From Blastocatellia bacterium (GTDB lineage: Bacteria; Acidobacteriota; Blastocatellia; RBC074), in assembly GCA_038211695.1 (NCBI GenBank), contig JBBQVH010000022.1, forward strand, positions 1,602-65,601: a stretch of DNA of 64,000 nt. The letters run 5' to 3'. The position numbers were made by a program, and so were the translations under genes. The notes under the pieces were generated by a model. That model worked only from the letters and a program-made list of their open reading frames with translations. It ran no database searches and was not told the origin of the DNA. Every line of letters starts with the position of its first letter. Position 1 is the stretch's first letter. Shown piece after piece: positions 8,809-58,423 of the stretch.

Positions 8809-8841
8809 CAGTTTTTTTCCATTATAGACATCAAGAAAAAG

Positions 8842-8929
8842 GAGCATGGAGTTCAGCCTTTAGGCTGTCGGATTTCTTGACCGTACCTTTCCCGGAAACC
8901 GGACAGCCTAAAGGCTGAACTCCATGCTC
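8842..8929. repeat. REP-like palindrome (~29-nt perfect arms)
   Basis: GAGCATGGAGTTCAGCCTTTAGGCTGTC(G) ... (C)GACAGCCTAAAGGCTGAACTCCATGCTC. Confidence 0.8.
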
Positions 8930-9021
8930 GGCGCGCGACGGGTTGTTTGGCAGACGAAAAACATTTTCTTAAATGCTATAGAAAAGAGGGCGGCTTGGGT
9001 GACAGCCGGGGTTTCCTGAGT

Positions 9022-10059: not shown

Positions 10060-10092
10060 TGAATGAATGGTTTATGGTGGCGACCGAAGTCA

Positions 10093-23445: not shown

Positions 23446-23449
<4 letters not shown>
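22178..23449 (-). CDS. wzt: Polysaccharide/O-antigen ABC exporter ATP-binding protein with C-terminal extension (Wzt-like)
   Basis: Walker A GRNGAGKST, signature YSSGM, Walker B ILFVDEVLAVGD, plus a ~190-aa beta-rich C-terminal domain. Start set at ATG 23449 (ATGA overlap with the upstream stop). The track start is 23512. Confidence 0.85.
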
Positions 23450-25209
<1,760 letters not shown>

Positions 25210-42171: not shown

Positions 42172-43238
42172 ACCTCTCACTCCTTTGATCGTGCTGGTAG
42201 ATCGTGCTGGAACTTCTAAGCTTTGCTGCTTGCGATGGCGCAAGCGCAGGGAGAAAACTTACGGTTGCGGTAAGCGAAAATATCTTAGCAATGGCTTGGC
42301 CCCTTTTCAAGAATGTGCATCAGAAGGCCATGAACAGGCATTGGCGCGATTTCCGCCAAAGACTCAAGCCTCTTCGTTAAACAGCGACGGTGCGACAAAT
42401 TACCGCTTGACGGACTTTAGCACGTTGGCTAAGATGCGTCGCGGATAAGGTGTAACGAATCAGAAACGGCAACACCCGATTCTCCTCACTGGTGATGATT
42501 TTAGTTGCTTCTCAATTGCCGTGCCTCACAATTCTTAAAAGATCAATGGTTCAAAGCTAATATCTGCCAAGTCTGATGACGACAAAATTGATGCCCCAAG
42601 GTCTGTGTTGAGAACCTGCGAGTGAGAGTCGAAGAGAGTGTATTGAGGAATTAACGAAAGGATGAGTTCGCCCAACGCCATTCATCATGTGCCCGCCAAT
42701 CCATCTCCCTTGTGCTCCATTCGTAGGCTTACTTATTTTGAAAAGCTTGTTGATCTGTCACGGCAGGATTTGAAAAACAAGCAATCATCTTCCCCTGATC
42801 TGTTTACTTCGACTCAATTGCCTGTCGTGGGTCTGGTGCCCCAAGTTCATAATTCAGGTGCTCCAACAAACATAATCTTTTCGCATTTAAATAGGATCAG
42901 CGCGTGAAAGCGTGTCTTGATTAAGTCAGCGTCGTAGTGTGAGATCACACGCTCAAGAGGCCTTTGTCTGGCCTTGTTGTTTGAGTTGTTGAGATGTGGA
43001 ATGCGTGATCCCGTGTGATGGCCGTTGGCCAATGTGATGTCGCACGGGCAGTGACTGAGGCTTTCAGCTTACGGCTGAAGCTTAGGTCCAATGCCTTCTG
43101 GAATCGGGCAGAGTCTGAGGTTTGGCTCGGGTTTGCCCAAGGTTAGATTGATAGATCATTTTTAGTGGCTAGCCGCGGGGCCTTACGAAGCCGTGCGGCA
43201 ATATCTTCGGCGCCATGGAAAAAGGAGTCTGAAAAACA

Positions 43239-46200
43239 ATGGCTGGTCGCGAATATCTTCTCAGGTTGTGCCGCTTGGCTTCACGCCGGGCGGTAGTCAT
43301 TGCGCTTGTCGCTGTGTGTTTGGCCAGTGCTAGCCTTATTAGCTGGTGGCAGGCATCAGCAGAGCGCTCACTGAATTCATCTGCAGCAACTATATCCCCA
43401 AAGGGAAATGCCGCAACTGCTGGCTCGCTGGTCTCACTAAGCGGTCTCAAATTCGCCCAGGGCGATGGCGCGCAAGGCGCTATGCTCGGTGAGTTCGAAG
43501 GCTACTTCGATGCCAAGACCCGCAGTTTCTCATTGCAGCCCAAGGGCGAGCGGGCGGGCACAGGCAATCGCCAGGCGTTCCGCAGCGATCCGGGTGGTGA
43601 CGTGCCGGTCGGGCCGTCAGGCTTTAGTTTCCGCGTGGTCAGAAGCGATTTCGTCAATACGCCTGACAATCCCGCAACGGTCGTCGGTGAAATTGAACTG
43701 ACGAACAACACAAGCGGCATCCTGTACAACACGCGCGTTGTCTTTACGTCGTTCAAGCTCAGTAATGCTGGTGGCGCGGATGCGGGGAATTTGCCGGGTG
43801 CCAATGGCTTTGCATATTTCAACGATGGCCAAGTCGCCTACAATAACAAGCTAAGCGTTTCTCGTGCTTACGGCGACATTGCGGCGGGCGGGAAGGTCAG
43901 TCAGGTCTGGTCTTTTGCAGTCGGAAACACTCCACCCAGCTTCTTTTTCGCATACAAAGTGATTGCGGACATTGGCGTCGCGGCTGAGAGCGTTGCTCCG
44001 GCGGCGGTGCAGGTGAATGCTTCCACGGGAACCAGCGTCATGATCAATGGCCGCGGATTTACCGGGACGCCAACGGTCCAGCTTGTAGGCGCTTCAACGG
44101 TTGCGCTAACGGGTGTGTCGGCGACGGCTACTGCGATCACGGCAACTGTTCCTGCGGGCACTGCCGCTGGCGCTTACAGCGTTCGTGTGATCAATCCTGG
44201 TGGGACGGCGGGTGGCGCAGGATCAAGCGTGCTGAATGGCAAATTGAAAGTGACGGGCGTGCCTGATGCAGGGCATACCGTTTCCGGCAACATCGCGGCC
44301 TTCGCCGATGCCGGGCCATATTTAGTTTCGGGCAGCGCGACGATCGGTTCGGCGGTGACGATTCCTGCCGGTGCGGTGATTTACGTTGCCGGTGGCGCTG
44401 CGATCACAGTCACCGGTGCTGGAAACATCACGGCAGATGGCGGAATTCCCGGAGTGTCTGCCACGAATCCAAATCAAATCGTGATTACATCTCAGCGTTC
44501 TCCGGGGGCGGCTTTGCCTGCGGCAGGAGCCTGGGGTGGAATCAATGCTACGTCGGTGGCTTCCTCGACGTTGACGATGAGGAACGTCGTGGTCGAATAC
44601 GGCGGCGCGTCGGGCAGCGCGGAAATCAACCTGACCGGTTCGGGGCGCACCCTGCGCTTTACGGACAGCATCGTTCGATCAAGCGCGGGCGCGGGCATTT
44701 CGGCGGCGGGCACGGGCGAGAGCCTGGTCGGCTTTGCGCGCAACCGGGTGGATAACAATGGCACGTCGGCCAGCGACCCGGCGGTGCTGGTCAGCGGTAA
44801 TGCTTCACTCGGTCTGTATGACATCAACAGCGCTAATGCTGCGACCAGCGTTGGCGATCCTTCCTATTTCTACTCATCCGCCAACGATTTCACCAACAAT
44901 CAAGTCAACGCAATTCAGATCGGAACCACTGCTGACGCAGCTTCAAACGATTTCACCAAATCGGGCGTGCTGGTCGGACAGGGGACGACACCGATCAGGA
45001 TTGCAGGCAGTTGCGCAAACCCGGCGATTGTCGGCGCGGTTCCTCCGGCCACTCCGGCGGAACTGACAATTGGCCCGTCAGCCACAATTCAGCTTGCGGC
45101 AGACCTCAACCTTCAAGCCGGTGATTATCCGTCGAATAAAGTCGGGTGTATCGCGGCCAACGGCTATGCCGGAGCCTACATCGGCCCCAAGCCAGGATCG
45201 GCGGCAGTCAACAAGCTGATCTCGTTCGACAAGATTCCGAGCGGCGGTAATTTCAGTGCAATCTTTTTCTCGCGCAACGCGATGGCCAACTGCATTCTGA
45301 ATTACGTCAGCGTGCAGAATGGCGGCGCGGCATCAGCATGCAGTAATGGCAACGGCGAAGTGATTACGGAAGTAATCGGCCTGAAGGTGACCAATTCGGT
45401 GATCACAGGCAGCGCGACAGGCGGTTTGCTGTCAATCGTCGGCGCAAAGGTGGATTCGCGCGGTTCAACGTTGAGCGGCAATGCCATTCCGATTATTGAT
45501 ACCATCGCCGGCGGTCTGCTGGGTGACGGTAACCTTGCCATACAATCCACCGTCTATTTGCCCATTGCGATTGCGACCGATCCCTTAGGCCGCGGCATTT
45601 ACGTGGCCGATTCAGCCGGAACCTTCCTGATCCGCTTCATCAATACGACGCGCAACACAGTGACGATTGGCGGGCAGAAAATTCCCGCCGGTGCGATCCG
45701 CACGGTCATTGGCGCTCCGAACGGCGACGGGGCTGACAACGTGCCCGGCACGACAGCAGACGTTGGCAGCTTGAGCGGTTTGGCGGTCAGCAAGGACGGC
45801 GATCTGGTCTACTGGATTGATCAGGGCGCTTCGGTCATTCGTGTCTACAACGCCTCTGCTTCGCCCAAAGCGGTTGCTGGGGGCAATCTTGCTCCTGGCA
45901 ATGTCACAACTGTGATCAGTATGGGACTTGGCTCCAGCGTCAATGCCCTGGCTGTGAATCCGGTGTCGGGTGAAATCTATGTTGCTGATGCGACAGCGGG
46001 CGTCAATCAGATCTTCAAGTTTGCTCCCACAGGCGGCGCTTTAACGCCGGTTGCAGGGAATGGCGCAAACACCAAATCTGATGATGCCTTCACGCCAGGC
46101 GCGGCAACCAGCAGTCCGCTGCTGCAACCCCGCGCGATTACATTCGATCCGCAAGGCAATCTTTACATCTCTGACACAGGCCACGCCCGCGTGATCAGAG

Positions 46201-47849
46201 TGGATGCGGGCGGCACCGCTTCACTGTTGGCGCAATTCCCGCCCAAGAGCGATCCGGCGGCGATGCCTTACGATAGTAATCCATTCGCCACAGGGCTGAC
46301 CTTCTTCAATGGCAAGCTCTACATTGCCAACGGCAACGCGCAGGACATCGCGCGGATTGACGCGCCGAATAATTTCACGACGATTGCCGGAACGATCAAA
46401 ACTTCCTGCGATTACACCTCTGACACCTGTGGCGATGGCGGGCCGATCGCTCAGGCTCTCTTTAACCTGGTCGGCAGCGTGTCGCAGCCGCCGCTGGTCG
46501 GGTTTTCATCCGACGGCAAAGGACTGTATGTCGCTGATCAAAGCTCGGGCAGCAAAGGCCGCGTCCGGTATCTGAATTTGAGCGCAATGGATACTGAAGT
46601 CGCGGGGATATTGGTGGCGGCCGGCAACATCAATACCATTGCCGGCGCGGGGCTGCCTTCGCCATTCAATGGTGGATTGGCGACCAGCGCCGCTTTCAAC
46701 AAGCCGAGTGGTGTTGGCGTGGACGGTAACGGGAATCTTTGGATTACCGACACGCTGACCAGCAAACTGCGCTTCGTGAATATGGGGACAACGACGATCA
46801 CGATTTTCGCAGGCACGACGGCAACTCAGGATGTGAAGCCGGGCGCGATCGCCGAAGTCAACAAGAACATCGGCGACGGCCCGAACGACGGCGCGCCGGT
46901 TAATTTCGCGGTCTTCGACACTCCGCAGGGATTGACCATCACCGCGCAGGGCATCTTTATAGCGGACTCAAAGTTCGGCGGCACGGTGGCGACCGGCAAC
47001 AAACCGCGTACCAGTTCGCTGCGCTTCATTAACACCACCAGCCAGACGATCACGTTTTATCCCAACGGCGCGACCAAGGTGAATGTTGCACCCGGCAACA
47101 TTGCCAGGATCGTCGGCGGCAGCACCGATCCGAATCTGCCAGGAGATGGCGCGAACCCGCTTGGGGCGAGATTGATCGGCGCGACTGACGTGGCGGTTCA
47201 TCCAACCACGGGTGACCTTTACATCGCCGAAGCCGGGCACGTTACCTTGTCGCGCATCCGCCGCGTGGATCGCAGCACGGGCGCGGTTTCGACCATCCTG
47301 ACGGGGGCAACGAACGATGCCTATCTTGGCGTGTCGTTTGACTCGGTTGGACGGCTGCTGGTCGCCAACGGCGGCTTCAAAACCGGCACTGGCGCGACGA
47401 CCAATCTGGGCAACAGTTCGATTTTGCGCGAGAAGGCTTCGGGACAGTGCGCGACCAACGCGACAAACTGCTTCGATACGATCTTGTCGGGTGGCACAGG
47501 CTCACTGCTGAAGAACCCACGTGATGTCGTCGAAGGCCGTGATGGCGCGTTGTATGTTACCAATGCCGGACCGTCCGAGGTGGGCAAGAGCGATAACAAG
47601 ATTCTGCGCATCGTGGTGTCGGGCACCACGGGCACAGCGTCAGTTTATGCCGGCACCATCCAGGGCTATAGCGGAGACGGGGGACCGGCGATCAACGCGC
47701 AACTCAACCTGGCGTCGGATGATTTCATCATCTCGACCTTCGGCACACCGGTGCTGACTTCGCGCGTGAATGTCACCATTACCATTGGGCTGAACGGAGA
47801 AATCATTTTCGCTGATGCGGCCAATAACGCGATCCGCCGGATTCGCTAA
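43239..47849 (+). CDS. Giant secreted protein: IPT/TIG-like + right-handed beta-helix-like region + multiple NHL/beta-propeller repeats
   Basis: 1536 aa with an N-terminal signal anchor. IPT-like segment (PAAVQVNASTGTSVMINGRGFTG...). Many NHL-type motifs (GIYVADS, LYISDTGHARVIRVD, LWITDT, LYIAEAGH, LYVTNAG). Confidence 0.8.
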   Translation: MAGREYLLRLCRLASRRAVVIALVAVCLASASLISWWQASAERSLNSSAATISPKGNAATAGSLVSLSGLKFAQGDGAQGAMLGEFEGYFDAKTRSFSLQPKGERAGTGNRQAFRSDPGGDVPVGPSGFSFRVVRSDFVNTPDNPATVVGEIELTNNTSGILYNTRVVFTSFKLSNAGGADAGNLPGANGFAYFNDGQVAYNNKLSVSRAYGDIAAGGKVSQVWSFAVGNTPPSFFFAYKVIADIGVAAESVAPAAVQVNASTGTSVMINGRGFTGTPTVQLVGASTVALTGVSATATAITATVPAGTAAGAYSVRVINPGGTAGGAGSSVLNGKLKVTGVPDAGHTVSGNIAAFADAGPYLVSGSATIGSAVTIPAGAVIYVAGGAAITVTGAGNITADGGIPGVSATNPNQIVITSQRSPGAALPAAGAWGGINATSVASSTLTMRNVVVEYGGASGSAEINLTGSGRTLRFTDSIVRSSAGAGISAAGTGESLVGFARNRVDNNGTSASDPAVLVSGNASLGLYDINSANAATSVGDPSYFYSSANDFTNNQVNAIQIGTTADAASNDFTKSGVLVGQGTTPIRIAGSCANPAIVGAVPPATPAELTIGPSATIQLAADLNLQAGDYPSNKVGCIAANGYAGAYIGPKPGSAAVNKLISFDKIPSGGNFSAIFFSRNAMANCILNYVSVQNGGAASACSNGNGEVITEVIGLKVTNSVITGSATGGLLSIVGAKVDSRGSTLSGNAIPIIDTIAGGLLGDGNLAIQSTVYLPIAIATDPLGRGIYVADSAGTFLIRFINTTRNTVTIGGQKIPAGAIRTVIGAPNGDGADNVPGTTADVGSLSGLAVSKDGDLVYWIDQGASVIRVYNASASPKAVAGGNLAPGNVTTVISMGLGSSVNALAVNPVSGEIYVADATAGVNQIFKFAPTGGALTPVAGNGANTKSDDAFTPGAATSSPLLQPRAITFDPQGNLYISDTGHARVIRVDAGGTASLLAQFPPKSDPAAMPYDSNPFATGLTFFNGKLYIANGNAQDIARIDAPNNFTTIAGTIKTSCDYTSDTCGDGGPIAQALFNLVGSVSQPPLVGFSSDGKGLYVADQSSGSKGRVRYLNLSAMDTEVAGILVAAGNINTIAGAGLPSPFNGGLATSAAFNKPSGVGVDGNGNLWITDTLTSKLRFVNMGTTTITIFAGTTATQDVKPGAIAEVNKNIGDGPNDGAPVNFAVFDTPQGLTITAQGIFIADSKFGGTVATGNKPRTSSLRFINTTSQTITFYPNGATKVNVAPGNIARIVGGSTDPNLPGDGANPLGARLIGATDVAVHPTTGDLYIAEAGHVTLSRIRRVDRSTGAVSTILTGATNDAYLGVSFDSVGRLLVANGGFKTGTGATTNLGNSSILREKASGQCATNATNCFDTILSGGTGSLLKNPRDVVEGRDGALYVTNAGPSEVGKSDNKILRIVVSGTTGTASVYAGTIQGYSGDGGPAINAQLNLASDDFIISTFGTPVLTSRVNVTITIGLNGEIIFADAANNAIRRIR

Positions 47850-47956: not shown

Positions 47957-48946
47957 ATGAAGTTATTCAGTAAGGCAAGAGGTCAGGCAACCAGGACGGC
48001 GGCTCGCGGCGCTGCCAGTGGAGTTGCCATCCTGATCGCTACCGTGCTCTGTGCTCTGGCCACGTCTGTCGTGGCATTTGGACAGGAAGCCAGGGGCGAC
48101 GAGAACTACGCGATCTTCGTATCGCAGCGCAACGGCGCCGCGGAACTTTATCTGATTGATCTTGGCACACACCAGGTCAGCCAATTGACCAACACCGGGC
48201 GAGGGCATTTGACGCCCTCCATCGCCGCCAATCGAGCCATTGTTTTCGCTTCGCGCGAAGGCTCGAATTACGAACTGTTCAGCGGATCCCTGGGCACTGC
48301 ATGGCGCACTCGCCGTCCGGTGATTACTGGGCTGAACCGGCTGACCATCAACACTTCCGACGAAACCGGAACCAGCATCACGCGCGAAGGCGATACGATG
48401 GCCTTCGTTTCGGGCAACGGTATTGAACTGATGACCGCCGGTGGCGGATCGCGTCAACTGGCCATCCCGGCAGGCGAGGAATCGAATGACTTTGCTCCGT
48501 CAATTTCGCCGGATGGCGCGCGCATCGCGTTTGTTTCGAATCGCGCGGGCGGCTACGACCTCTGGCTATACACCAAATCCACGGGGGATATTCGCCAGTT
48601 GACGCGCAGCGCCAAGGCGGGTGGCGGTGTCAGTTGGAGTGCGGATGGACGGCAGATCGTCTTCAACACAACGGCCACTGACAACGAAGCCAGCGGCGTC
48701 GCAATGGCGGATGCCGAAACCGGCGCCTTCCGTGTGTTGACCAATCAGGGCGACTTCAATGGTTCGCTATCGGCTCGCGGCAACCGGATGCTGTTTACCT
48801 CGACGCGTGACGGCGACGCGGAACTTTATCTGCTCAACGTCGGCAGCGGTTCGGTCGAACGCCTGACCATCAGCCCGGGGGCGGATGATGGAGCGGTCTT
48901 CGTGGCGGAACCGATTCGGCCAAGCCCGCCATCGCGCAGGCCATAA
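47957..48946 (+). CDS. TolB-like PD40/WD40-like beta-propeller repeat protein (secreted)
   Basis: Signal peptide present. PD40 motifs ELYLIDL..., PSISPDGARIAFVSNRAGGYDLWLY, FTSTRDGDAELYLLN. GGAGG SD. Confidence 0.8.
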   Translation: MKLFSKARGQATRTAARGAASGVAILIATVLCALATSVVAFGQEARGDENYAIFVSQRNGAAELYLIDLGTHQVSQLTNTGRGHLTPSIAANRAIVFASREGSNYELFSGSLGTAWRTRRPVITGLNRLTINTSDETGTSITREGDTMAFVSGNGIELMTAGGGSRQLAIPAGEESNDFAPSISPDGARIAFVSNRAGGYDLWLYTKSTGDIRQLTRSAKAGGGVSWSADGRQIVFNTTATDNEASGVAMADAETGAFRVLTNQGDFNGSLSARGNRMLFTSTRDGDAELYLLNVGSGSVERLTISPGADDGAVFVAEPIRPSPPSRRP

Positions 48947-49036
48947 ATTGACAATCGCTGGGCTGAGAAACAAATAAGCTGTGCGCTTTGACGACGGCCC
49001 AAATAAGTCTTTGGAAAGGACGCAAGGAAAATTCCC

Positions 49037-49480
49037 ATGCAGATGCAGACCAGTTCCCCGAAAATCGTGACGAAAGAGCAGGCTTCATTTACCGAACTGC
49101 TCGATAACCAAGAAGGCATCATTCTCGATCTTGAGAACCTTCATTACTACACCTTGAATGCGGCAGCGGTCTTCCTGTGGAAGCAGATGCGGTCAGGTTC
49201 GGCCAACACGGCGGAATCACTGAGCGCGGCGTTGGCGACAGCGTTCAACATCAACAGCGATCTGGCGGAGCTGGATTCGCGCGCATTCCTCGACGAACTC
49301 GAAGGCAATGCGTTGGTCTTCCACTCCGAGTTTGACGTGACAGTGATCAACCGGGCGCTGGCCGCCGCAAACGGCGAACTGCCCGCCTACGAACCACCGC
49401 AACTGAAACTGTCGAATTCACTGACGCAGGTTACGCTGTCGGGTTCTTCGACCATCGCAGTCGCGGCCATCGGCGGCTAA
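49037..49480 (+). CDS. PqqD-family protein (RiPP-recognition-element-like) with ~50-aa C-terminal extension
   Basis: EGIILDLENLHYYTLNAAAVFLWKQM ... AELDSRAFLDELEGNALV matches the PqqD/RRE winged-helix pattern. Confidence 0.75.
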   Translation: MQMQTSSPKIVTKEQASFTELLDNQEGIILDLENLHYYTLNAAAVFLWKQMRSGSANTAESLSAALATAFNINSDLAELDSRAFLDELEGNALVFHSEFDVTVINRALAAANGELPAYEPPQLKLSNSLTQVTLSGSSTIAVAAIGG

Positions 49481-49484
49481 ACAG

Positions 49485-49516
49485 ATTGCGGATTGCGGAT
49501 TGCGGATTGCGGATTC
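49485..49516. repeat. (GCGGATT)n heptamer tract, left arm of a 32-nt perfect inverted repeat
   Basis: ATTGCGGATTGCGGATTGCGGATTGCGGATTC, lying between the PqqD stop and the kinase-like start. Confidence 0.9.
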
Positions 49517-49560
49517 AAACCGTATATCCGCAATCCCTGCTCCACTCTTTGCACTCCTTT

Positions 49561-50634
49561 ATGCCTGCCGTTACGCTGGCGATTTGTGGCAATCAACTTT
49601 CCATTTCGGCGCGTGCGCCTCGCCTGATTCGCCTCTTCGCCGACTACTTTCGCTACTACAATCCCCAGATCATTTCCTCCACTGACACGCCGAATCCTTT
49701 GGCGGACAATCCACCTGCGCTCCAAATCGAACTGAAGATGCGCGATGCGTTACCGCCGCGCGAACGATTGATCCCGCCGTCGGCAGAACTCTTTTCGCAA
49801 ACGGGTATTGTCAGCTTGTGGCGGGAGACAGGGCGAAAAGAATCCGCAATCCGCAATCCGCAATCCGCAATTGCAGAAGTTGAGGGGAGGTTTTTCTTTC
49901 ACCTCGGGGTAGCGGCGTTTCGTGTGGATGTTGAAACTGGCCGCGCCATTGGCCTGGTCACGCCGCAGGCCATGGAATACCCGCACATTCTGGCCAATAC
50001 CTACACGCTGTTTGCGCTGTTGTTGATGCTGCGCACGCGGCGGCTCTATCACCTTCACGCGGCAGCCATCGTTTCGCCGGATGACAAGCTGTGGCTGATC
50101 TGTGGCGCGCAGCGGGCAGGGAAGACGACCTTAACGACAGCGTTGGGATTGGCGGGCTGGCGACCCATTTCGGATGATTCGCTATTGATCGGCAGAGATG
50201 AAGAATCCGCCTGGCTGACGCCGTTCAAAAAGTATTTTCACATCGGCGATGAACTGCTGCGTCGCTGGCCTCAGTTAGAAGGCATCCAGCGTCATCACCA
50301 ATATCTTGACCGCACCTGCACGGGCGGGCTGGAGTTTTTTGGCACGCGCGAATTGGCCGAAACGAAATTCCGCCGCATTGATCACATTGTCCTGCCGCAG
50401 ATCGTCAATGAACAAGTGAGTCGTGTGGAACCTTTGGCGCGCAGTGAAGCCATGCTGCGATTGGCCGAACAGAGCATGTTCTTTCAGCTTTGGCGCGACC
50501 ACACCGCCCGGCAATGGCAGTGGCTGAATGAATTGGCAGCAAACGCTAAGTGTCATCGTTTATTTTCAGGGGCTGACGCCTTGGCGGACCCGCACACCGC
50601 CGCGCGAATTCTGGACAGGCAGAGTGGAGATTGA
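49561..50634 (+). CDS. HPr-kinase-like (HprK-related) P-loop protein
   Basis: LHAAAIVSPDDKLWLICGAQRAGKTTLTTALGLAGWRPISDDS matches the HprK C-terminal pattern H-x..G-x-x-G-x-GK[ST]...DD. Start set at ATG 49561, because the track start at 49486 lies inside the heptamer tract. Confidence 0.7.
   Translation: MPAVTLAICGNQLSISARAPRLIRLFADYFRYYNPQIISSTDTPNPLADNPPALQIELKMRDALPPRERLIPPSAELFSQTGIVSLWRETGRKESAIRNPQSAIAEVEGRFFFHLGVAAFRVDVETGRAIGLVTPQAMEYPHILANTYTLFALLLMLRTRRLYHLHAAAIVSPDDKLWLICGAQRAGKTTLTTALGLAGWRPISDDSLLIGRDEESAWLTPFKKYFHIGDELLRRWPQLEGIQRHHQYLDRTCTGGLEFFGTRELAETKFRRIDHIVLPQIVNEQVSRVEPLARSEAMLRLAEQSMFFQLWRDHTARQWQWLNELAANAKCHRLFSGADALADPHTAARILDRQSGD
49840..49871. repeat. (AATCCGC)n heptamer tract, right arm of the inverted repeat, in-frame inside the HprK-like gene
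   Basis: GAATCCGCAATCCGCAATCCGCAATCCGCAAT is the exact reverse complement of 49485-49516. It encodes ...ESAIRNPQSAI... Confidence 0.9.
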
Positions 50635-50681: not shown

Positions 50682-50710
50682 TTGACACCCTTCAAGCGCA
50701 CTCACAGAAT
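50682..50710 (+). promoter_or_regulatory. Candidate sigma-70-type promoter of the ECF-sigma/kinase operon
   Basis: TTGACA, 17 nt, CAGAAT, about 70 nt upstream of ATG 50782. Confidence 0.4.
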
Positions 50711-50781: not shown

Positions 50782-51348
50782 ATGCCGACATCACCGAACA
50801 AGGACGTAACACAACTGCTGGCTGATTGGAGAAAAGGCGATCAGGTGGCATTGGATCAACTGGTTCCGCTCATCTACCAGGAGCTTCATAAAATCGCGGG
50901 CGGTTATCTCAGCCGCGAACGATCCGGCCACACGATCCAGCCAACGGCGCTGATTCACGAAGCCTATCTGCGGCTGGCGGCGCAGCAGATGCCCGAATGG
51001 CAGAACCGCAAACATTTCTTCGGCGTGGCTGCACAATTGATGCGGCAGATTCTGGTTGAACACGCGCGCGCCCACGCGAGCGCCAAACGCGGTGCGGGCG
51101 AACAGAACCTGCCGCTGGATGAAGCGCTGGCCTATTCCACAGAGCGTCCCGGTGATCTGGTTGCGCTCGACGACGCGCTCAATAGCCTTGCGGCCTTCGA
51201 CGAGCGTAAAAGCCGGATGGTCGAGTTGCGCTTTTTCGGCGGCTTGTCGCTGGAAGAGACCGCCGAAGTGATGGGCGTTTCCATTCCCACCGTCGTGCGC
51301 GAAATGCGGCTGGCGCAAGCCTGGCTGCACAGAGAAATGGCCAAATGA
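50782..51348 (+). CDS. ECF-type RNA polymerase sigma factor (kinase-associated subgroup)
   Basis: LLADWRKGDQVALDQLVPLIYQELHKIAGGYL...ALIHEAYLRL (region 2) and LSLEETAEVMGVSIPTVVREMRLA (region 4 HTH). ATGA overlap with the kinase gene. Confidence 0.9.
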   Translation: MPTSPNKDVTQLLADWRKGDQVALDQLVPLIYQELHKIAGGYLSRERSGHTIQPTALIHEAYLRLAAQQMPEWQNRKHFFGVAAQLMRQILVEHARAHASAKRGAGEQNLPLDEALAYSTERPGDLVALDDALNSLAAFDERKSRMVELRFFGGLSLEETAEVMGVSIPTVVREMRLAQAWLHREMAK

Positions 51349-54300
51349 CCCCAGCTAACATGACCCCTGAACGCTGGCAAAAAGTTGAAGAGGTTTTTGA
51401 AACGGCGATCGAGCTTCCGGCCGAAGAGCGCGAAGCCTTTCTGACGCAAGTCTGCGGCGAAGACGACGACTTGCGCACCGAGATCGCTTCGCTGCTGGAG
51501 AACGAAGCCGAAGAGACGTTCTTTCAGTCGGCGGTTAAAGATGGCGCGCAAACCTTCGCCCACGCCGCCGTCGAAGAGATCATCGGCCAGCGCATCGGCG
51601 CTTACCGCATCACCGGTCTGGTTGGGCAGGGCGGGATGGGCGCTGTTTATCGGGCCGTCCGCGACGACGATCAGTTCAATCAACAAGTCGCCATCAAGAT
51701 CATCAAGCGCGGAATGGACACGGGGCTGGTGCTGCGCCGTTTCTGGCGCGAGCGGCAAATCCTGGCCAGCCTGAACCACCAGAACATTGCGCGATTGCTG
51801 GATGGCGGGACGACTCCGGACGGGCGGCCTTACTTTGCCATGGAGTTCATCGAAGGCCAGCCGATCAGCGATTACTGCGAAGCCCGCGAGCTTTCAATTC
51901 CCGACCGATTGAAACTCTTTCGTCAGGTGTGCGCCGCCGTTCAATTCGCTCATCAAAATCTGATCGTCCACCGCGACATCAAACCGGCCAATATTCTGGT
52001 CACTGAAGACGGCACGCCGAAGCTGCTGGATTTTGGCATCGCCAAACTGCTGGCGTCCGACACGGGCCAGGCTTCGACGCGTACCGTCACCGGAATGCGC
52101 CTGATGACGCCCGATTACGCCAGCCCCGAACAGGTGCGCGGCGGAACGATTACGACGGCTTCGGATATTTACAGTCTGGGCACTGTGCTTTACGAACTGT
52201 TGACCGGCCAGCATGCGCATCAATTCAAAACCTACTCGCCTGTCGAAATCGAAGAAACCGTTTGTCTGACGGAAGCCGAAAAGCCCAGCGAAGCTGCGGC
52301 GCGCGCTGAAGGCGGGCACTCGCGCTGGCGCAAGCAATTGGCCGGTGACGTGGACAACATCGTGCTGATGGCCTTGCGCAAGGAACCTGAGCGCCGCTAC
52401 CAATCGGTTGAACAATTTTCCGAAGACATTCGCCGCCACCTGGAAGGTTTGCCGGTCATCGCGCGCAAAGACACGGTCGGTTACCGCACGGGCAAATTCG
52501 CGCGGCGGAACAAACTGGGGATTGCGGCGGTGGCGCTGGTCATGCTGAGCCTGATCGCGGGCCTGATTGCCACGCTGCATCAGACGCGCATTGCCCGCGC
52601 CGAAAGCGCCCGTGCGGAAGGCGAGCGTGCCCGCGCCGAAGCCAATCTGGTAGAAGCCAGAGCGCAAAAAACAGAAGCCGAATCGCAGCGAGCCGAAGCC
52701 CTGCGGCAACGCAGCGAAGCCGATGTTCAGCGCGCATTGGCTGAAGAGCAGCGCGCCGAAGCCCAGGCCCAAACCGTCGAAGCCATGCGCCAACGCGCCC
52801 TGGCCGAAGCCGAGCGCGCCAAAGCCGAAAACCGATTCGGCCAGGTTCGCAAACTGGCCAACACTTTCCTTTTCGATTTCCACGACAAGATTCGCGATCT
52901 GCCCGGTTCGACTCCGGCGCGCGAACTGGTGGTCAAGACCGCGCTCGAATACCTGGACGGTCTGGCACGGGAATCGGCGGGCGACACGGCCCTGCAGTGG
53001 GAACTGGCGACAGCTTATGAAAAAGTCGCCGATGTGCAGGGCAATCCGAATCAGGCCAATCTGGGCCAGACGGCGGCGGCGCTGGAAAGCTATCGCAAGA
53101 CAACGGAGATTGCGGAAAAATTGTTGGCGCGCGATCCGGCCAACGAAAAATTCCTGCGCATGCTGGCTTCGGTTTACAGCAAAGTCGGCCCGATCGAATT
53201 GCGTGGCGGCAAGACCGCGCTGGCCAGACAGACGGCGCAGAAAGGCATCGGCATCGCCGAGCGATTGTTGGCGGTCAGGCCCGCGGACGACGAAGTTTTT
53301 GCGCTGATCATCGTGGGGTACGCCAACATTGGCGCAACGGATCAATTGACCGGCGACATTCCGGGCGCGATGCAAACCGCCCGCCAACGTCTGGCCATCG
53401 CCAACCGCTGGATGGCTGAACGTCCCGGCCCGCGCGCGCGCGCCAGCCTGGCAACCAGCCAGGGCGAGATTGCGGATATTTCGAACCATATGGGAGATTT
53501 GCCCGCCGCATTGGAGCTTTTTCGCCAGGCGCTTGCCTTCTATCTGGTAGCCGTCGAAGAGCAGCCCAATAATGCCCAGGTGCGACGGCAATTGGTTGCG
53601 ATTTATGGAAGGTTGGCCAGTGTGCTGGGCGATCCCAGGGGCATCAATCTGGGAGACACAGCGGCGGCGATCGAACACCAGCGCAAAGCATTGGCGATTG
53701 CGGAGGAGTTGGCGGCGGCGGATCCGAAGAACGTGCGCGCGCGCAACGAGCTGAATTTTCAATACCGCGATCTTGGTTTGCTGCTCGGCGAAACCAATCC
53801 GGCAGAAGCGATAAAGCTTTTTGATCAGGCATTCACCGTCATGAAAGCCACGGCTCCGGCGGGCAGGCCGGTCTCGCGCGAATACGAAGCGATGTACCAC
53901 GCGGAGGTCGCCCAACCCTGGCTCAAGATGGGAAACCGTGCTGCCGCCCGCCAGCACGCCGACCAGGCGGGCGAACTCCTGCGGGCGATTCCTATTCAAA
54001 ACCGCATGTTCACCACTGAGATTGCCGACAAACTCCATCTGGCAATCGGCGATGTGTTATTGGAGACCGGCGATGTGGCGGGGGCGTTGGAAAATTATCG
54101 CCAGGCCCTGTCCTTTGCCGAAGGCGACGTGGCAGCCAGTCCCTTCGATATGGAAAAACGATACGGCCTTGCCTTCTGCCACGAAAAGCTTGGCAAGTAT
54201 CACGTCACGCTGGCCGCGCAAGCCGGTCTGGCCGCCGGTCAACAGACCGAACATTGGCGCGAAGCGCGCGCCCACCATCAGAAAGCCACGCAGGTCTGGA

Positions 54301-54413
54301 ACGAATGGAGCCGATGGGGCAAATCGAGCGCCTTCGATGTCAAAAGAAAAGAACAGACCGCGCGTGCCCTGGCCGAATGCGACGCCGCGCTGGCAAAGCT
54401 GGGAGCGCGATGA
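51345..54413 (+). CDS. Membrane Ser/Thr protein kinase with coiled-coil and TPR-rich extracytoplasmic region
   Basis: GQGGMGAVYRA, VAIKII, HRDIKPANIL, DFGIAK, SPEQ. One TM helix (IAAVALVMLSLIAGLIATL), an RAEA-rich coiled coil, then TPR-like repeats. Confidence 0.9.
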   Translation: MTPANMTPERWQKVEEVFETAIELPAEEREAFLTQVCGEDDDLRTEIASLLENEAEETFFQSAVKDGAQTFAHAAVEEIIGQRIGAYRITGLVGQGGMGAVYRAVRDDDQFNQQVAIKIIKRGMDTGLVLRRFWRERQILASLNHQNIARLLDGGTTPDGRPYFAMEFIEGQPISDYCEARELSIPDRLKLFRQVCAAVQFAHQNLIVHRDIKPANILVTEDGTPKLLDFGIAKLLASDTGQASTRTVTGMRLMTPDYASPEQVRGGTITTASDIYSLGTVLYELLTGQHAHQFKTYSPVEIEETVCLTEAEKPSEAAARAEGGHSRWRKQLAGDVDNIVLMALRKEPERRYQSVEQFSEDIRRHLEGLPVIARKDTVGYRTGKFARRNKLGIAAVALVMLSLIAGLIATLHQTRIARAESARAEGERARAEANLVEARAQKTEAESQRAEALRQRSEADVQRALAEEQRAEAQAQTVEAMRQRALAEAERAKAENRFGQVRKLANTFLFDFHDKIRDLPGSTPARELVVKTALEYLDGLARESAGDTALQWELATAYEKVADVQGNPNQANLGQTAAALESYRKTTEIAEKLLARDPANEKFLRMLASVYSKVGPIELRGGKTALARQTAQKGIGIAERLLAVRPADDEVFALIIVGYANIGATDQLTGDIPGAMQTARQRLAIANRWMAERPGPRARASLATSQGEIADISNHMGDLPAALELFRQALAFYLVAVEEQPNNAQVRRQLVAIYGRLASVLGDPRGINLGDTAAAIEHQRKALAIAEELAAADPKNVRARNELNFQYRDLGLLLGETNPAEAIKLFDQAFTVMKATAPAGRPVSREYEAMYHAEVAQPWLKMGNRAAARQHADQAGELLRAIPIQNRMFTTEIADKLHLAIGDVLLETGDVAGALENYRQALSFAEGDVAASPFDMEKRYGLAFCHEKLGKYHVTLAAQAGLAAGQQTEHWREARAHHQKATQVWNEWSRWGKSSAFDVKRKEQTARALAECDAALAKLGAR

Positions 54414-54834: not shown

Positions 54835-55338
54835 ATGAAAATCAAAACAAACGTTAAAGCAGGCTTTCTGACTGGGAACCACAACCAGACGGTGTCGCGC
54901 GGCCTGAAGGTCAAGACCAGCGTCAAGGCCGGATTCAATCCCCAGCCCGACCCGCCGGGCCGCAGCAACCACAACCAGACAGTGTCGCGCGGCCTGAAGG
55001 TCAAGACCAGCGTCAAGGCCGGATTCAATCCCCAGCCCGACCCGCCGGGCCGCAGCAACCACAACCAGACGGTGTCGCGCGGCTTGAAGGTCAAGAGCAG
55101 CGTCAAAGCGGGCTTTCTCTGTGACAACCACAACCAGACGGTGTCGCGCGGCCTGAAGGTCAAGAGCAGCGTCAAGGCGGGATTCAACCCCCAGCCCGAC
55201 CCGCCGGGCCGCAGCAATCATAACCAGACGGTGTCGCGCGGTCTGAAGGTCAAGAGCAGCGTCAAGGCCGGATTCAATCCCCAGCCCGACCCGCCGGGCC
55301 GCAGCAACCACAACCAGACAGTGGCGCGCAGCTTGTAA
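54835..55338 (+). CDS. Cassette-repeat peptide/protein A (6 cassettes; KVKxSVKAGF - variable - NHNQTVSRG)
   Basis: 167-aa ORF. The in-frame 69/90-nt periodicity is conserved at protein level with genes B and C. No signal peptide. Cores are [15 protein letters not shown] (x4) and FLCD. Confidence 0.8.
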
Positions 55339-55540
55339 GGTCAAGACCTTCGTCAAGGCCGGGCTTATTGATCTGACTGACAGGTGGCAAAGATTGGCTC
55401 GGCGGACGAGAATGAAAAGAGGCATTAGCCCGTTCGCGTTCGCCGCGTCAGTGGTAGCCGTCTTGTCGGCCACGGTCTGGGCGGGGCCTCAATCGCCGGA
55501 CGCAAACATCACCAAAAGATCACCAAAACATCATGCCTGA
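55337..55540 (+). pseudogene. +1-frame continuation of gene A: orphaned terminal cassette ([13 protein letters not shown]...) followed by a signal-peptide-like 42-codon sORF
   Basis: Gene A ends AGC TTG TAA G where gene B has AGC CTG AAG G. Skipping T55336 restores [15 protein letters not shown]... An ATG at 55412 then gives MKRGISPFAFAASVVAVLSATVWA-GPQSP..., with stop at 55538-55540. Confidence 0.35.
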
Positions 55541-55686
55541 CGCTGGCCCAGTGCCTATACTCCGCATCGTTGACGGCGGCCTCAAACGAGGCAATCGCCG
55601 TGGCAATTGAAAAAATGATCGTCCGGCTGGCTGTGCGGAAAGCCATCAGCCAGCCGGATGCCAACAACGAGAGAGATTAATACGTC

Positions 55687-56274
55687 ATGAAAACCACGAA
55701 TAAGCAGCAAGTTTTGAAGGTCAAGACCAACGTTAAGGCTGGCGGCTTCCAACTCAACCACAACCAGACAGCGGCGCGCGGCCTGAAGGTCAAGAGCAGC
55801 GTCAAGGCTGGCGGTCTCACCAGTGCTAACCACAATCAGACGATGGCATGTGGCCTGAAGGTCAAGAGCAACGTCAAAGCTGGCGGTCTCGCATCCAACC
55901 ACAACCAGACGGTGGCGTGTGGCCTGAAGGTCAAGAGCAACGTCAAGGCGGGCAGTCTCACCAGCAACCACAACCAGACGGTGGCGCGTGGTCTGAAGGT
56001 TAAGAGCAACGTCAAAGCCGGCAGTCTTACCTCGAACCACAACCAGACGGTGGCGTGTGGCCTGAAGGTTAAGAGCAGCGTCAAGGCTGGCGGCATCATC
56101 GTTAACGACCGAAATCACAACCAGACGGTGGCGCGTGGCCTGAAGGTCAAAAGCAAGCTGAAGGCGGGCGAATATCCGCCCGACCCGTGTCGCACCCGCA
56201 ACCACAACCAGACGGTGGCGCGCAGCCTGAAGGTCAAGACCAACGTCAAGGCAGGGCTGATCGGGCTGTTGTAA
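55687..56274 (+). CDS. Cassette-repeat peptide/protein B (7 NHNQT cassettes + terminal [14 protein letters not shown])
   Basis: 195-aa ORF. Cores are GFQL, GLTSA, GLAS, SLTS (x2), GIIVNDR and [10 protein letters not shown]. The linker residue toggles between Arg and Cys. Confidence 0.8.
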
Positions 56275-56473
56275 TCACGGCTGACCGGACTGAAAGATTT
56301 TTTTGATCGAGATGATAGTTTTGACCGATCTTTTCCGCCTTATCAGGTGAGCGCCGAATGAGGCGCTTAACGAAATGGCAGCGAAGCGGTTTTTCACCAT
56401 TCCCTACAAGGCAGGGGCGGCGGTACTTCGCACGCCGTCCCCAACCGACGATCAAATCGTTATAGGAGAAATC

Positions 56474-57094
56474 ATGAAGGTCAAAACTCAAGTCAAAGCG
56501 GGCGGGATTACTTGGAATCACAACCAGACGACGGTGCGCGTCAAGACTGGCGTCAAAGCTGGCGGGATGAGGGTCAATCACAACCAGACGGCGGTGCGCG
56601 TGAAGACCAGCGTCAAAGCGGGCGGAATACAATTCAACCACAACCAGACGGCGAAAAGCTTGCGTATCAAGTCCGACGTTAAAGCGGGTGGCATTCAGTT
56701 CAACCACAACCAGACGGCGAAGAGCTTGCGCATCAAGTCCGGCGTCAAAGCAGGTGGGATAAGTTTGCAGCACAACCAAACGGCGAAAGGCTTACGCATC
56801 AAGTCCGGCGTCAAAGCTGGCGGCATGAAGGTGAATCACAACCAGACGGTGAAAAGCTTGCGTATCAAGTCCGGCGTCAAAGCCGGACCAGGTAATGGTG
56901 GTGGTGTATGGCTCAACCATAACCCAACAGTGAAGAGCGGCTTGAAGGTCAAGTCGAGCGTCAAGTCGGCCGGCCCTGGCGTCGTGCTTCAGCACAACCA
57001 GACGGTGAAGCTTGGCCTGAAGGTCAAGACCAGCGTCAAAGCGGGCGGAGCCAAGCTCAACCACAATCAGACCGTGGCTGGTGTAATCGCTTAA
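56474..57094 (+). CDS. Cassette-repeat peptide/protein C (9 cassettes; [KR][VI]KxxVKAGG - xxx - [NQ]HN[QP]T)
   Basis: Start set at ATG 56474, preceded by AGGAG with a 5-nt spacer (the track ORF starts at 56375). 206 aa. Cores after GG are ITW, MRV, IQF, IQF, ISL, MKV, (P)GNGGGVWL, PGVVL and AKL. Confidence 0.8.
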   Translation: MKVKTQVKAGGITWNHNQTTVRVKTGVKAGGMRVNHNQTAVRVKTSVKAGGIQFNHNQTAKSLRIKSDVKAGGIQFNHNQTAKSLRIKSGVKAGGISLQHNQTAKGLRIKSGVKAGGMKVNHNQTVKSLRIKSGVKAGPGNGGGVWLNHNPTVKSGLKVKSSVKSAGPGVVLQHNQTVKLGLKVKTSVKAGGAKLNHNQTVAGVIA

Positions 57095-57108
57095 TGGCGA
57101 TGATAATC

Positions 57109-57144
57109 CGCCGCCGAAATTTCCTGGAAAAATTTACGGCGGCG
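57109..57144 (+). other. Stem-loop 15 nt after gene C stop (possible attenuator/mRNA-stabilising hairpin; no U-run)
   Basis: CGCCGCCGAAATTT-cctggaa-AAATTT(A)CGGCGGCG: 14 bp with one bulge. Confidence 0.45.
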
Positions 57145-57192
57145 TGATCAATCCGGCGCGCCGTTATCGCATGTCAAGATGGGAGGGCGAGT

Positions 57193-58308
57193 ATGATCGC
57201 GGCTACCGAACAATCATCATCACAACCGCCGGCAGACCCTGCGGAACAAGCCGTCAGTTTGCACGAAGCGGGCGTCGAGGCTTATCACGCGGGGCACGGG
57301 CCGCGAGCCGAACGGCTGTTTCTGTCGGCGGTGGAATTGTTTGAAACGCACGACGGCGTTGATTCGCCGGACGTAGCGGCAGTGCTCAATGATCTGGGCG
57401 CGGTGGCCGAAGACCGCTGCGATTACGAAACGGCGCTGCGGCGGTTCCGCCGCGCGGCTGAGATCATTGAACCGCTCGGCGATGCGGATGACGAAGATTT
57501 ACGGCGGCTGTGGCTGCAATCGTGGAGCAATCTGGGACGGCTGACCCGCATTCAAGGCCGCTACGACGAGGCAAAGCAGATTTGCAAACGCGCGCTGGAT
57601 TACGCCCAAGCGACCTTCGGGGCTGAAAGTACGGAAGCCGCCGACGCGCTGAACAATCTGGGAATGGTCGGCAAGTTCGCGGGCTGGTTCGACGAAGCCG
57701 AAGGTTATTACCATCGCGCGGTGGCAATTCTGGAGCGCGAACACGGAGCCGATCACGTTTCACTGGCTTCGCTCTTTCACAACTTGGGCGGCCTGGAACA
57801 CGCGCGCGGACGTTTTGCCAAAGGCGAACCATACGCACGCCGCTCGGTTGAATTGCGCGAAAAGGCCGTGGGCAAGGATCATCCCGACGTGGCTGCGGAT
57901 GTGGCCGCGCTGGCCGCACTGCTTGACGGGCAGGGCAAGTATGAAGAGTCCGAACCGCTTTACCACCGCGCACTGGCCATCTTTCGCCGGGTGCACGGCG
58001 AAGAGCATTACGAAATCGCCGTCAATCTGAACAACCTGGCCGCGATTTATCAAGAGCAAGAACGATTCGCCGAATCAGAAGATCACTACCTGCGGGCGCT
58101 GGCCATCAAGGAAAAAATCTTCGACGCCGCGAACGTCGAAATCGCGCTGACGCTGAACAACCTGGCCGTGCTGTATCAGGCTCAGGGGCGTCATGACGAA
58201 GCCGCCGTGTTATTGCGTCGCGCGCTGGCGATCTTTGAACAAACACTTGGCGACGATCATCCGCATCTGGTCGCCTGCCGCGAAAATCTAGCTGGATTTG
58301 TACCGTAG
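57193..58308 (+). CDS. Stand-alone TPR protein (kinesin-light-chain-like TPR_10/12 repeats)
   Basis: About eight 42-aa repeats (…AAVLNDLGAVAEDRCDYETALRRFRRAAEI…, …ALTLNNLAVLYQAQGRHDEAAVLLRRALAIFE…). GGAGG SD. Confidence 0.85.
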   Translation: MIAATEQSSSQPPADPAEQAVSLHEAGVEAYHAGHGPRAERLFLSAVELFETHDGVDSPDVAAVLNDLGAVAEDRCDYETALRRFRRAAEIIEPLGDADDEDLRRLWLQSWSNLGRLTRIQGRYDEAKQICKRALDYAQATFGAESTEAADALNNLGMVGKFAGWFDEAEGYYHRAVAILEREHGADHVSLASLFHNLGGLEHARGRFAKGEPYARRSVELREKAVGKDHPDVAADVAALAALLDGQGKYEESEPLYHRALAIFRRVHGEEHYEIAVNLNNLAAIYQEQERFAESEDHYLRALAIKEKIFDAANVEIALTLNNLAVLYQAQGRHDEAAVLLRRALAIFEQTLGDDHPHLVACRENLAGFVP

Positions 58309-58401
58309 GCTGTCCAGCCTGCGGAGGTCTTGGCCGAGTGATCTCTGGTTTCCCAAAAGTTCTTCGCCGGAAGCATCCGCAGGCTGGACAGCCTACGGTA
58401 C
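58300..58401. repeat. 26-nt perfect inverted repeat (50-nt loop) spanning the TPR stop and the spacer before the HlyD-like gene
   Basis: GTACCGTAGGCTGTCCAGCCTGCGGA (58300-58325) / TCCGCAGGCTGGACAGCCTACGGTAC (58376-58401). Confidence 0.85.
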
Positions 58402-58423
58402 ATTGCCGAACAGGAGAAACGAT

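Follow-up and report, generated by a model that had tools for sequence, protein, structure and literature searches.

HprK-like kinases phosphorylate a Ser residue of linear lasso-peptide precursors (PMC8498205). In lasso pathways the leader carries a conserved YxxPxL motif at positions -17 to -12, which is bound by the discrete B1 proteins, RiPP recognition elements (RREs; RiPP, a peptide synthesized by ribosomes and modified post-translationally) (PMC10368454, PMC6784204), and the penultimate leader residue is mostly Thr, sometimes Ile, Val or Ala (PMC10368454). Moreover, the RRE BsfB1 strongly raises phosphorylation of precursor Ser3 by the kinase BsfK, for which the core peptide alone is no substrate (PMC10368454). 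Here we analyze a PqqD-like RRE gene (49037-49480) and an adjacent HprK-like P-loop kinase gene (49561-50634), both on the plus strand of a 64,000-nucleotide (nt) stretch of a Blastocatellia bacterium (contig JBBQVH010000022.1, positions 1,602 to 65,601; the whole stretch is called the window below). RREs are the main handle in RiPP genome mining, and "orphan" RREs, as this one was labeled in a preliminary description of the window, are usually set aside. We find that the pair closes an operon conserved in Blastocatellia, as its third and fourth cistrons, and that the PqqD protein ends in a conserved, leader-like tail. To the reading that the kinase phosphorylates Ser/Thr residues in this tail of its own chaperone, RRE-assisted as in lasso precursors and with neither protease nor cyclase, we assign a probability of roughly 0.4.

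Related loci came from a genome scan with the kinase alignment. Of the 27 that it gave, 21 are close relatives, and almost all derive from metagenome-assembled genomes of Blastocatellia or Acidobacteriota. The PqqD gene encodes a 147-residue protein of ~15 kDa, and the PqqD/RRE pattern first read from its translation is borne out by domain searches and modeling. The Pfam PqqD model PF05402 matches residues 26-94 with 45.7 bits (gathering score 23.4), and the AlphaFold model of the whole protein has a canonical winged-helix RRE fold, with a predicted local distance difference test (pLDDT) score of 68 overall and 73-86 in the domain blocks (residues 21-90). On these grounds and from Foldseek, the RRE domain is assigned to residues 1-97 (49037-49327, plus strand). 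The top PDB matches of the RRE model in Foldseek are lasso B1-leader complexes, 5v1v and 5v1u (TbiB1 with leader peptides) and 6jx3, at a target template-modeling (TM) score of 0.83-0.88 and a root-mean-square deviation of 1.3-1.8 Å; PqqD itself ranks below them. Judged by its modeled structure, the PqqD protein is a lasso-B1-type RRE. Its scores with the lasso B1 RRE sequence models lie well below threshold (NF033530, 24.8 bits, cut-off 70; NF033536, 23.2 bits, cut-off 80), and TIGR04353, the HPr-rel-A PqqD chaperone model, which calls for at least 35 bits, gives no match to it at E ≤ 0.01. Directly 5' of the PqqD start codon, 26-28 nt (49005-49032) are 100% identical in five loci, the coding regions of which are only ~80% identical.

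The RRE domain is followed by a tail of ~50 residues ending STIAVAAIGG, noted earlier as unexplained, which is conserved in homologues. It begins with a variable linker (residues 98-113, 49328-49375) that is poorly conserved and of low pLDDT. Next comes a leader-like segment, LPAYEPPQLKLSNSLTQVTL (residues 114-134, 49376-49438), with YxxPxL at 49388-49405, and then an acceptor-like end, SGSSTIAVAAIGG plus the stop codon (residues 135-147, 49439-49480; all on the plus strand), which holds candidate phosphorylation sites. In alignments of homologues from related loci and of 57 database homologues, residues 114-145 are conserved to the same degree as the RRE, with the consensus LPAYEPPQLKLSNSLTQVTLSGSSTIATAAI and then a short, variable Gly-rich end. 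The motif reads Y118-E-P-P121-Q-L123, with LSGSSTIA after it. Among the 57 homologues, Y118 and P121 are invariant, L123 is near-invariant, and L123, S126-N127-S128, V132, S135-G136-S137 and T139 are at least 90% conserved. Across the family, 115 of 120 members have Y..P.[LVIM], the remainder being truncated or having Phe in the final position. When Y118 is set as -17, T133 falls at -2, S135 at +1 and S137 at +3. The tail thus places YxxPxL at -17 to -12, as lasso precursors do, and at -2, where these have Thr (rarely Ile/Val), it has Thr in the window and in most homologues, and Val, Ala, Ser or Asn in some.

In 21 loci the tail is the sole conserved open reading frame (ORF) end with YxxPxL; no conserved small ORF and no second YxxPxL-bearing ORF end, and hence no separate precursor, was found there. 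Relative to the window, each of the 12 closest loci has 8-15 synonymous and 1-5 non-synonymous differences across the 27 tail codons compared; this excess of synonymous over amino-acid changes shows that the tail is under protein-level selection. In the AlphaFold model residues 123-125, positions -12 to -10, form a short beta-strand (pLDDT ~65). This would fit a tail that adds a strand to the RRE sheet, although the strand is only suggestive of it. A search of PDB with the tail profile gave a chance match only. The "orphan" label is misleading, since the leader-like peptide that such an RRE would bind is fused to that very RRE.

The partner gene at 49561-50634 encodes a 357-residue P-loop protein of the HprK/phosphoenolpyruvate carboxykinase (PEPCK) fold, a putative Ser/Thr peptide kinase, with the P-loop at 50104-50127 and the Asp-Asp pair at 50173-50178. 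The frame is open from a TTG at 49486 (a 382-residue ORF), but the true start is the ATG at 49561, because all 16 aligned homologues begin MPAxxL there. The preliminary description had recognized an HprK C-terminal pattern, H...G-x-x-G-x-GKT...DD; its identification, its start and its Asp-Asp pair stand, but the motif is actually G-x-x-R-x-GKT, within H166...G182-A-Q-R185-A-G187-K188-T189...D205-D206. Degenerate P-loop or catalytic residues, which that description had named as evidence that would count against its reading, are not seen: the motif is intact, and H166, G182, G187, K188, D205 and D206 are invariant in 63 homologues. Indeed, seven of eight positions agree with the validated BsfK motif H148-G163-G166-G168-K169-S170-D186-D187 (PMC10368454). 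The two motifs differ only at the middle Gly, where our kinase has Arg185, and BsfK with this Gly changed to Ala (G166A) keeps its activity (PMC10368454).

The AlphaFold model of the kinase, built on the homologue alignment, has a pLDDT of 93 and a predicted TM score of 0.90. Its top PDB matches are PEP carboxykinases (E ~1e-6, probability 1.00), which places it in the HprK/PEPCK-like P-loop fold; all 50 structural matches listed are PEP carboxykinases, and HPr kinases are absent among them. The PEP carboxykinase fold class includes HprK C-terminal domains. Searches with family models, which had been proposed as a check, gave only sub-threshold matches. TIGR04352 (HprK_rel_A) scores 40.5 bits (cut-off 200, E 1.7e-10, residues 186-359 of the 382-residue ORF), and there are traces of ScmC and of HprK_rel_B, the last (TIGR04355, HprK-related kinase B of the GAK system) at 16.3 bits against 200, with none of its ATP-grasp or CofD-like partners in the conserved block. 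A Pfam scan returned no match, neither did the HPr kinase models TIGR00679 and Hpr_kinase_C, and a profile of the 63 homologues found nothing significant among PDB sequences. In the N-terminal domain Y32-Y33 is invariant and P35 near-invariant (YxxP; residues 32-36, 49654-49668), directly before a variable, low-confidence loop (residues 39-53). Y32-Y33-x-P35 could serve as a second RRE docking site.

The two genes belong to a larger unit, as determined by tblastn of 13 window proteins against the related loci and by all-against-all ORF clustering. The conserved block has a DegP/HtrA gene on the minus strand, a gap of ~1 kb, and then genes for an NHL/TIG protein (~1,540 residues), a PD40 propeller (~330 residues), the PqqD protein and the HprK-like kinase. 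All four plus-strand genes occur in 16 genome loci, with kinase identity down to 37%, and in 3 metagenome contigs; the PD40 gene is conserved in 19 genome loci and DegP in 13. Shorter contigs carry whatever part of the block their length allows, and nothing beyond it is conserved. The NHL/TIG and PD40 genes precede the pair in every related locus that has upstream sequence, usually with the divergent DegP gene as well. The PqqD/HprK-like pairing recurs in all related loci and so cannot be put down to chance, and in six loci a convergent gene for a 657-residue protein directly follows the kinase gene, so the operon unit ends there. The four-gene operon is conserved across soil Acidobacteria.

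In the window, the first gene (43239-47849, plus strand) encodes a 1,536-residue protein with an N-terminal signal or anchor, a TIG domain and NHL beta-propeller repeats (Pfam NHL, TEN_NHL and TIG). The second (47957-48946, plus strand) encodes a PD40/TolB-like beta-propeller of 329 residues with a signal peptide (Pfam PD40, 89.8 bits; TolB sub-threshold). The divergent DegP/HtrA protease gene, with Trypsin_2 and PDZ domains, lies at 40585-42243 on the minus strand. Searched against PDB sequences, the NHL and PD40 proteins matched only generic propellers, and the PADLOC defence models gave no match.

Tails of this kind are not confined to the Blastocatellia family. The full-length PqqD-tail alignment, searched as a profile against 1.84 billion cluster representatives, recovered 12 representatives of its own family (E ≤ 1e-30) and, beyond them, many further PqqD proteins. 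In the top 149 representatives, [YF]xxPx[LVIF] follows residue 80 in 58 of the 71 that have at least 115 residues and in none of the 78 shorter ones; we estimate the chance expectation at ~4% per 50-residue tail. Four tail classes can be told apart. Class A ("LSGE-end") reads YxxPxLxx[FY]xxL[ED]xL[ILV][LIV]SGE-COOH, with an invariant terminal Glu. Class B reads YxxPxLxx[YF]xD[ML]QxLLLxDPIHDVxxxGWP, often with two or three PqqD-tail modules per protein. Class C ends GGG(S)HYWYPN, and class D is the present Blastocatellia family. Classes A and D have exactly the same spacing from Tyr to L-S-G, and a class-A tail almost reaches the cut-off of the lasso-leader model NF033521 (16.9 bits; cut-off 19). 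Two or three tandem PqqD domains, in most cases followed by a YxxPxL-type tail, are present in P0258, P0259, P0262, P0263, P0266, P0268, P0278 and P0300, and a clear DPIHDV...GWP ending usually stands on only one module of such proteins.

HprK-like partners recur with these proteins. In P0263 and P0300, three PqqD-tail modules are fused to an HprK-like domain with H...GSGKS...GDD. At the class-A loci L028 (8001-12169) and L029 (7350-13782) the HprK-like gene lies two genes from the PqqD-tail gene, in the order PqqD-tail, S26 signal-peptidase-like (~150 residues), HprK-like, and glycosyltransferase and NTP_transf_5 genes, and hhalign aligns our kinase family with the L028 kinase at a probability of 95.8% (E 8e-9) across the N-terminal domain, the P-loop and the Asp-Asp motif. 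A distant relative, L027, has a tail-less PqqD gene beside its HprK-like gene. In L022, another distant relative, from a Vicinamibacterales metagenome-assembled genome, a single 748-residue protein (8294-10540) has a C-terminal HprK-like domain supported by TIGR04352 (53 bits). By eye only, its N-terminal region resembles a tubulin-tyrosine-ligase/ATP-grasp domain followed by a PqqD-like middle; no family model matches there. Literature searches for RRE-leader fusions, or for PqqD/HprK pairs outside lasso clusters, found nothing beyond the lasso papers, and in the searchable literature there appears to be no description of tail-bearing PqqD proteins as a wider class.

From the domains, the intact catalytic motif, the conservation of operon and tail, and the recurrent pairing of tail-bearing PqqD with HprK-like proteins, we infer a mechanism as follows. 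The tail would dock on the RRE, in cis or between molecules, and the RRE would present it to the partner kinase, or activate that kinase. The kinase would then phosphorylate Ser135, Ser137, Ser138 or Thr139, in parallel with the boost that BsfB1 gives BsfK on Ser3. Ser135 would be the favored site, since the Ser of L-S-G is the hydroxyl residue common to classes A and D; Ser137 corresponds to Ser3 of the BsfK substrate BsfA. The pair has neither a protease nor a cyclase beside it. What results would therefore be a 15-kDa phosphoprotein that serves as a switch or a carrier, not a released lasso peptide or any other secreted peptide, and this protein might have a role towards the co-transcribed envelope proteins.

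Several observations weigh against phosphorylation of the tail. The tail region of the AlphaFold model is only moderately confident. The family's tails give no match to the NCBI lasso-leader model NF033521 (lasso_leader_L3) or in an NCBIfam scan. The kinase scores far beneath every curated family cut-off and has, in its own N-terminal domain, the Y32-Y33-x-P35 element beside a disordered loop. In BsfA, triple mutants with Ala for Y(-17), P(-14) and L(-12) are still phosphorylated, and the authors raise the possibility of direct contact between B1 and the kinase (PMC10368454). DPIHDV...GWP tails have no conserved Ser/Thr at the equivalent position, so tail phosphorylation cannot be universal in the superfamily. 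Finally, the proposed mechanism does not explain why a pair of cytoplasmic proteins shares its transcript with two exported propellers, or why DegP is so often a neighbor.

Some of these same points favor the main rival explanation, in which the tail is no substrate at all and serves as a built-in pseudo-leader latch or a head-to-tail linker, the kinase acting on another protein or peptide, possibly one from the same operon ahead of its export, or one encoded elsewhere. The mutant BsfA results suggest that RRE-kinase contacts are what matters; the YxxP element of the kinase would suit such contacts, the class with DPIHDV has no conserved Ser/Thr to modify, and the LSGE-end tails stop three residues past their leader-like part. 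We nevertheless think it rather unlikely, as conservation equal to that of the motif itself extends over the 13 residues that follow the leader-like part (SGSSTIATAAI), for which a pure latch would have no need, and the block contains no other conserved small ORF or YxxPxL-bearing protein.

That the P-loop protein is instead a small-molecule kinase or phosphotransferase, PEPCK- or FomB-like, with the PqqD protein as a scaffold or regulator outside peptide modification, is less likely again, and we regard it as improbable. Its best fold matches are indeed PEP carboxykinases, a relative has weak matches to FomB and PEPCK models, and it has no significant sequence match to any solved kinase. However, proteins of this family consistently adjoin, or are fused with, peptide-binding RRE domains, and the catalytic motif agrees with those of experimentally validated peptide kinases.

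A genuine lasso pathway, whose B2 protease and cyclase would be encoded elsewhere in the genome and would cut off and cyclize the tail, is very unlikely. In its favor are the B1-like RRE fold and a leader motif of lasso type, with Ser at +1 and, in the majority of homologues, Thr at -2. In contrast, there is no Asp/Glu at core position 7-9, where a lasso precursor has its acceptor; indeed, neither SGSSTIAVAAIGG nor the aligned homologues contain an acidic residue anywhere in the would-be core, and therefore no lasso macrolactam can form. Neither a lasso cyclase nor a leader protease is present in the window, as the preliminary description had observed, and B2 and C genes, which with A make up a lasso-kinase cluster, are likewise absent from the 10-kb flanks of ~20 loci. 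Pfam scans of the larger ORFs over 1-40 kb and 62-64 kb found no transglutaminase-like B2 protease in the window; the scanned regions hold a polysaccharide or sialic-acid-type cluster with glycosyltransferase, Wzy and NeuB genes. Three paralogous Asn-synthase homologues lie in this exopolysaccharide cluster on the minus strand, 24-42 kb upstream of the pair (6916-8847, 10093-12018 and 23446-25209). Lasso cyclases are not known to have the N-terminal nucleophile of glutamine-dependent amidotransferases. The three homologues were rejected as lasso cyclases on account of strong GATase domains, MCG[IL] N termini with the Cys nucleophile, and neighboring glycosyltransferase genes, and are therefore ordinary glutamine-dependent amidotransferases of the exopolysaccharide-locus kind.

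Downstream of the conserved block the window contains genes for an extracytoplasmic function (ECF) sigma factor, a Ser/Thr kinase with tetratricopeptide (TPR) repeats, three cassette proteins, a TPR protein, HlyD and a C39-ABC exporter. The sigma factor, of TIGR02999 type (224 bits), and the Ser/Thr kinase occupy 50782-54413, and 54835-62481 encodes the three repeat proteins, with units that close in x(5-8)-NHNQT, followed by the TPR protein, the HlyD adaptor and the C39-peptidase ABC exporter. A KAGG in each cassette unit looks like a double-glycine cleavage site, and the sequence suggests that the cassettes may be secreted peptides with several cores and a dedicated export machinery.

The preliminary description had offered the cassette proteins (54835-57094) as the nearest candidate substrates, which the pair would present and phosphorylate; they are on the same strand, 4.2 kb from the pair, and consist of Ser/Thr-rich repeats. 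It counted the idea as refuted should other genomes keep the pair in unrelated surroundings and never beside cassette genes, and this is what was found. The pair is conserved in ~20 genomes beside NHL, PD40 and DegP genes, and in the 27 loci of the motif scan, which did not extend to L028-L032, it never co-occurs with cassette genes: NH[NS][QP]T has 20 hits in the window and none in those loci, and [KR][VI]K[ST]x[VL]K[AS]G has 23 and none. Similarly, tblastn of the cassette proteins against related loci gave no match, and YxxPxL is not found in them. The sigma factor and Ser/Thr kinase genes are common only to the window and its closest relatives, L005, L030 and L031, and contigs that share them have other genes in the cassette position. 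In two of the three metagenome contigs, which have the sigma factor and kinase genes, gene calls after these give a 108-residue ORF unlike the cassettes and a TcA/TcB-like protein, which in L030 has 1,497 residues. The contig of the closest relative, L005 (82% identity), ends within the Ser/Thr kinase gene, and in L032 (77% identity) a convergent TPR gene directly follows the pair. Moreover, a separate promoter-like site, TTGACA-17-CAGAAT (50682-50710), precedes the sigma factor gene, and the cassettes have TPR, HlyD and C39-ABC export genes of their own. A role as substrates of the pair is thus refuted on the description's own terms, and we consider it even less likely than a lasso pathway. 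Least likely of all is a decaying lasso-cluster remnant without current function, to which the missing core lasso enzymes might point, as more than 100 homologues, with identities as low as 37%, keep both genes intact, the catalytic residues do not vary, and synonymous changes in the tail exceed amino-acid changes.

We also propose, tentatively and with more doubt than for tail phosphorylation itself, that RREs fused to their own leader and acceptor peptide constitute an undescribed and large class of modules complete in themselves, the partners of which are HprK-type kinases, and that in Blastocatellia such a module has been recruited as a protein-level phospho-switch or carrier tied to the envelope beta-propeller operon. 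Tail types number at least four, and both tandem arrays and fusions straight to the kinase occur. If the proposal is correct, RiPP machinery would have been repurposed beyond the making of a secreted natural product. An RRE that carries leader and acceptor in cis would give meaning to a whole class of apparent orphans, which in one search came to 58 of 71 long PqqD representatives, and the substrate of an uncharacterized kinase family (HprK-related A, ScmC-like) would become directly testable with two recombinant proteins. It would also be a natural example of cis leader presentation, which to our knowledge has otherwise only been engineered. For Acidobacteria, it would bring into view a conserved, unstudied operon that links cytoplasmic phosphorylation machinery with large exported propeller proteins.

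The operon also has conserved non-coding elements. A promoter-like site found by a consensus scan, TTGACG-17-TAAGAT, lies ahead of it (42407-42435, plus strand), with both hexamers invariant in 8 aligned loci. It is followed by a conserved non-coding leader region of ~300 nt 5' of the NHL gene (42436-42720, plus strand; 72-80% DNA identity to 5-7 loci), which carries an invariant ACGGCAA...TTGCCGT stem and two CCTCAC boxes. The lengths of indels there are no multiples of three, and support from covariation is weak. A candidate upstream ORF in this leader was discarded, being frame-shifted in L002, and the 1-kb gap before the NHL gene gave no Rfam and no tRNA match. Region 42407-42720 may give rise to a leader RNA that controls the operon.

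Two heptamer arrays form a perfect 32-nt inverted repeat, whose arms stand 323 nt apart on either side of the HprK-like gene's start. The left arm, (GATTGCG)4, lies between the PqqD and kinase genes (49484-49516), and the right arm, (AATCCGC)4, lies in the kinase gene (49840-49871). Read in frame, the right arm gives SAIRNPQSAI, a low-confidence loop; kinase residues 91-110 have a pLDDT of 58-65. The 64 kb contain no further copies of the arrays, and other loci have different heptamer units at the same intergenic spot, ACTCCCC in L007 and AACTCAG in L032. The arms could possibly pair in the mRNA as a long-range stem that covers the start codon, or changes in repeat number could act as a switch.

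Among described systems, the phosphorylated lasso pathways (PadeK/ThcoK/SyanK, and BsfK with BsfB1) come closest, and the analogy with lasso kinases of the paeninodin type drawn in the preliminary description holds. There, as here, a discrete B1-type PqqD/RRE protein adjoins an HprK-like kinase with H...G..x.GK[ST]...DD, and the leader has YxxPxL, with Thr/Val/Ala at -2 and a Ser near the core start (Ser3 in BsfA); in those pathways the RRE stimulates the kinase (PMC10368454, PMC8498205). In contrast, their leader is encoded separately, whereas here it is fused to the C terminus of the RRE. They have a B2 protease, a cyclase, an ABC exporter and a core Asp/Glu acceptor, none of which is found here. 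The RRE here scores 23-25 bits with lasso B1 models, against cut-offs of 70-80, and the operon partners are exported beta-propeller proteins.

The uncharacterized HPr-rel-A system shows that, as the preliminary description had stated, family databases do contain a pairing of an HprK-related kinase with a PqqD protein (TIGR04352 with TIGR04353). The kind of pairing is the same and TIGR04352 is the best family match of our kinase, but the window pair falls far under those cut-offs, the kinase with 40.5 bits against 200 and the PqqD protein with no TIGR04353 match. The relatives L028 and L029 add S26-peptidase-like, glycosyltransferase and NTP_transf_5 genes that are absent here, a gene content that recalls the kinase and nucleotidyltransferase tailoring of pseudomycoidin. 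The SynChlorMet proteins ScmC and ScmD (TIGR04249 and TIGR04248; PF27840) are likewise an HprK-like and PqqD-like pair, and one homologue, P0103, has a precomputed PF27840 match; however, the scores here are 16.8 and 17.2 against cut-offs of 125 and 100, and no radical-SAM partners lie nearby. HprK/P, which acts with HPr, shares the PEPCK-like-fold P-loop kinase with its His and Asp-Asp, and action on a Ser of a small partner would be a further likeness; here, though, no HprK model matches, the N-terminal domain is different, and the partner is an RRE instead of HPr. Borosins are precursor-enzyme fusions in which the modified peptide is the C-terminal tail of a pathway protein. In borosins the tail is joined to the modifying enzyme, in the PqqD protein to the recognition domain, and the chemistry differs. 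The pair thus resembles the kinase and RRE part of phosphorylated-lasso pathways and is not a lasso cluster. What is known is the combination of an RRE with an HprK-type peptide kinase; what is new is a leader-like and acceptor-like tail fused to the RRE in cis, without core lasso enzymes and within a beta-propeller operon.

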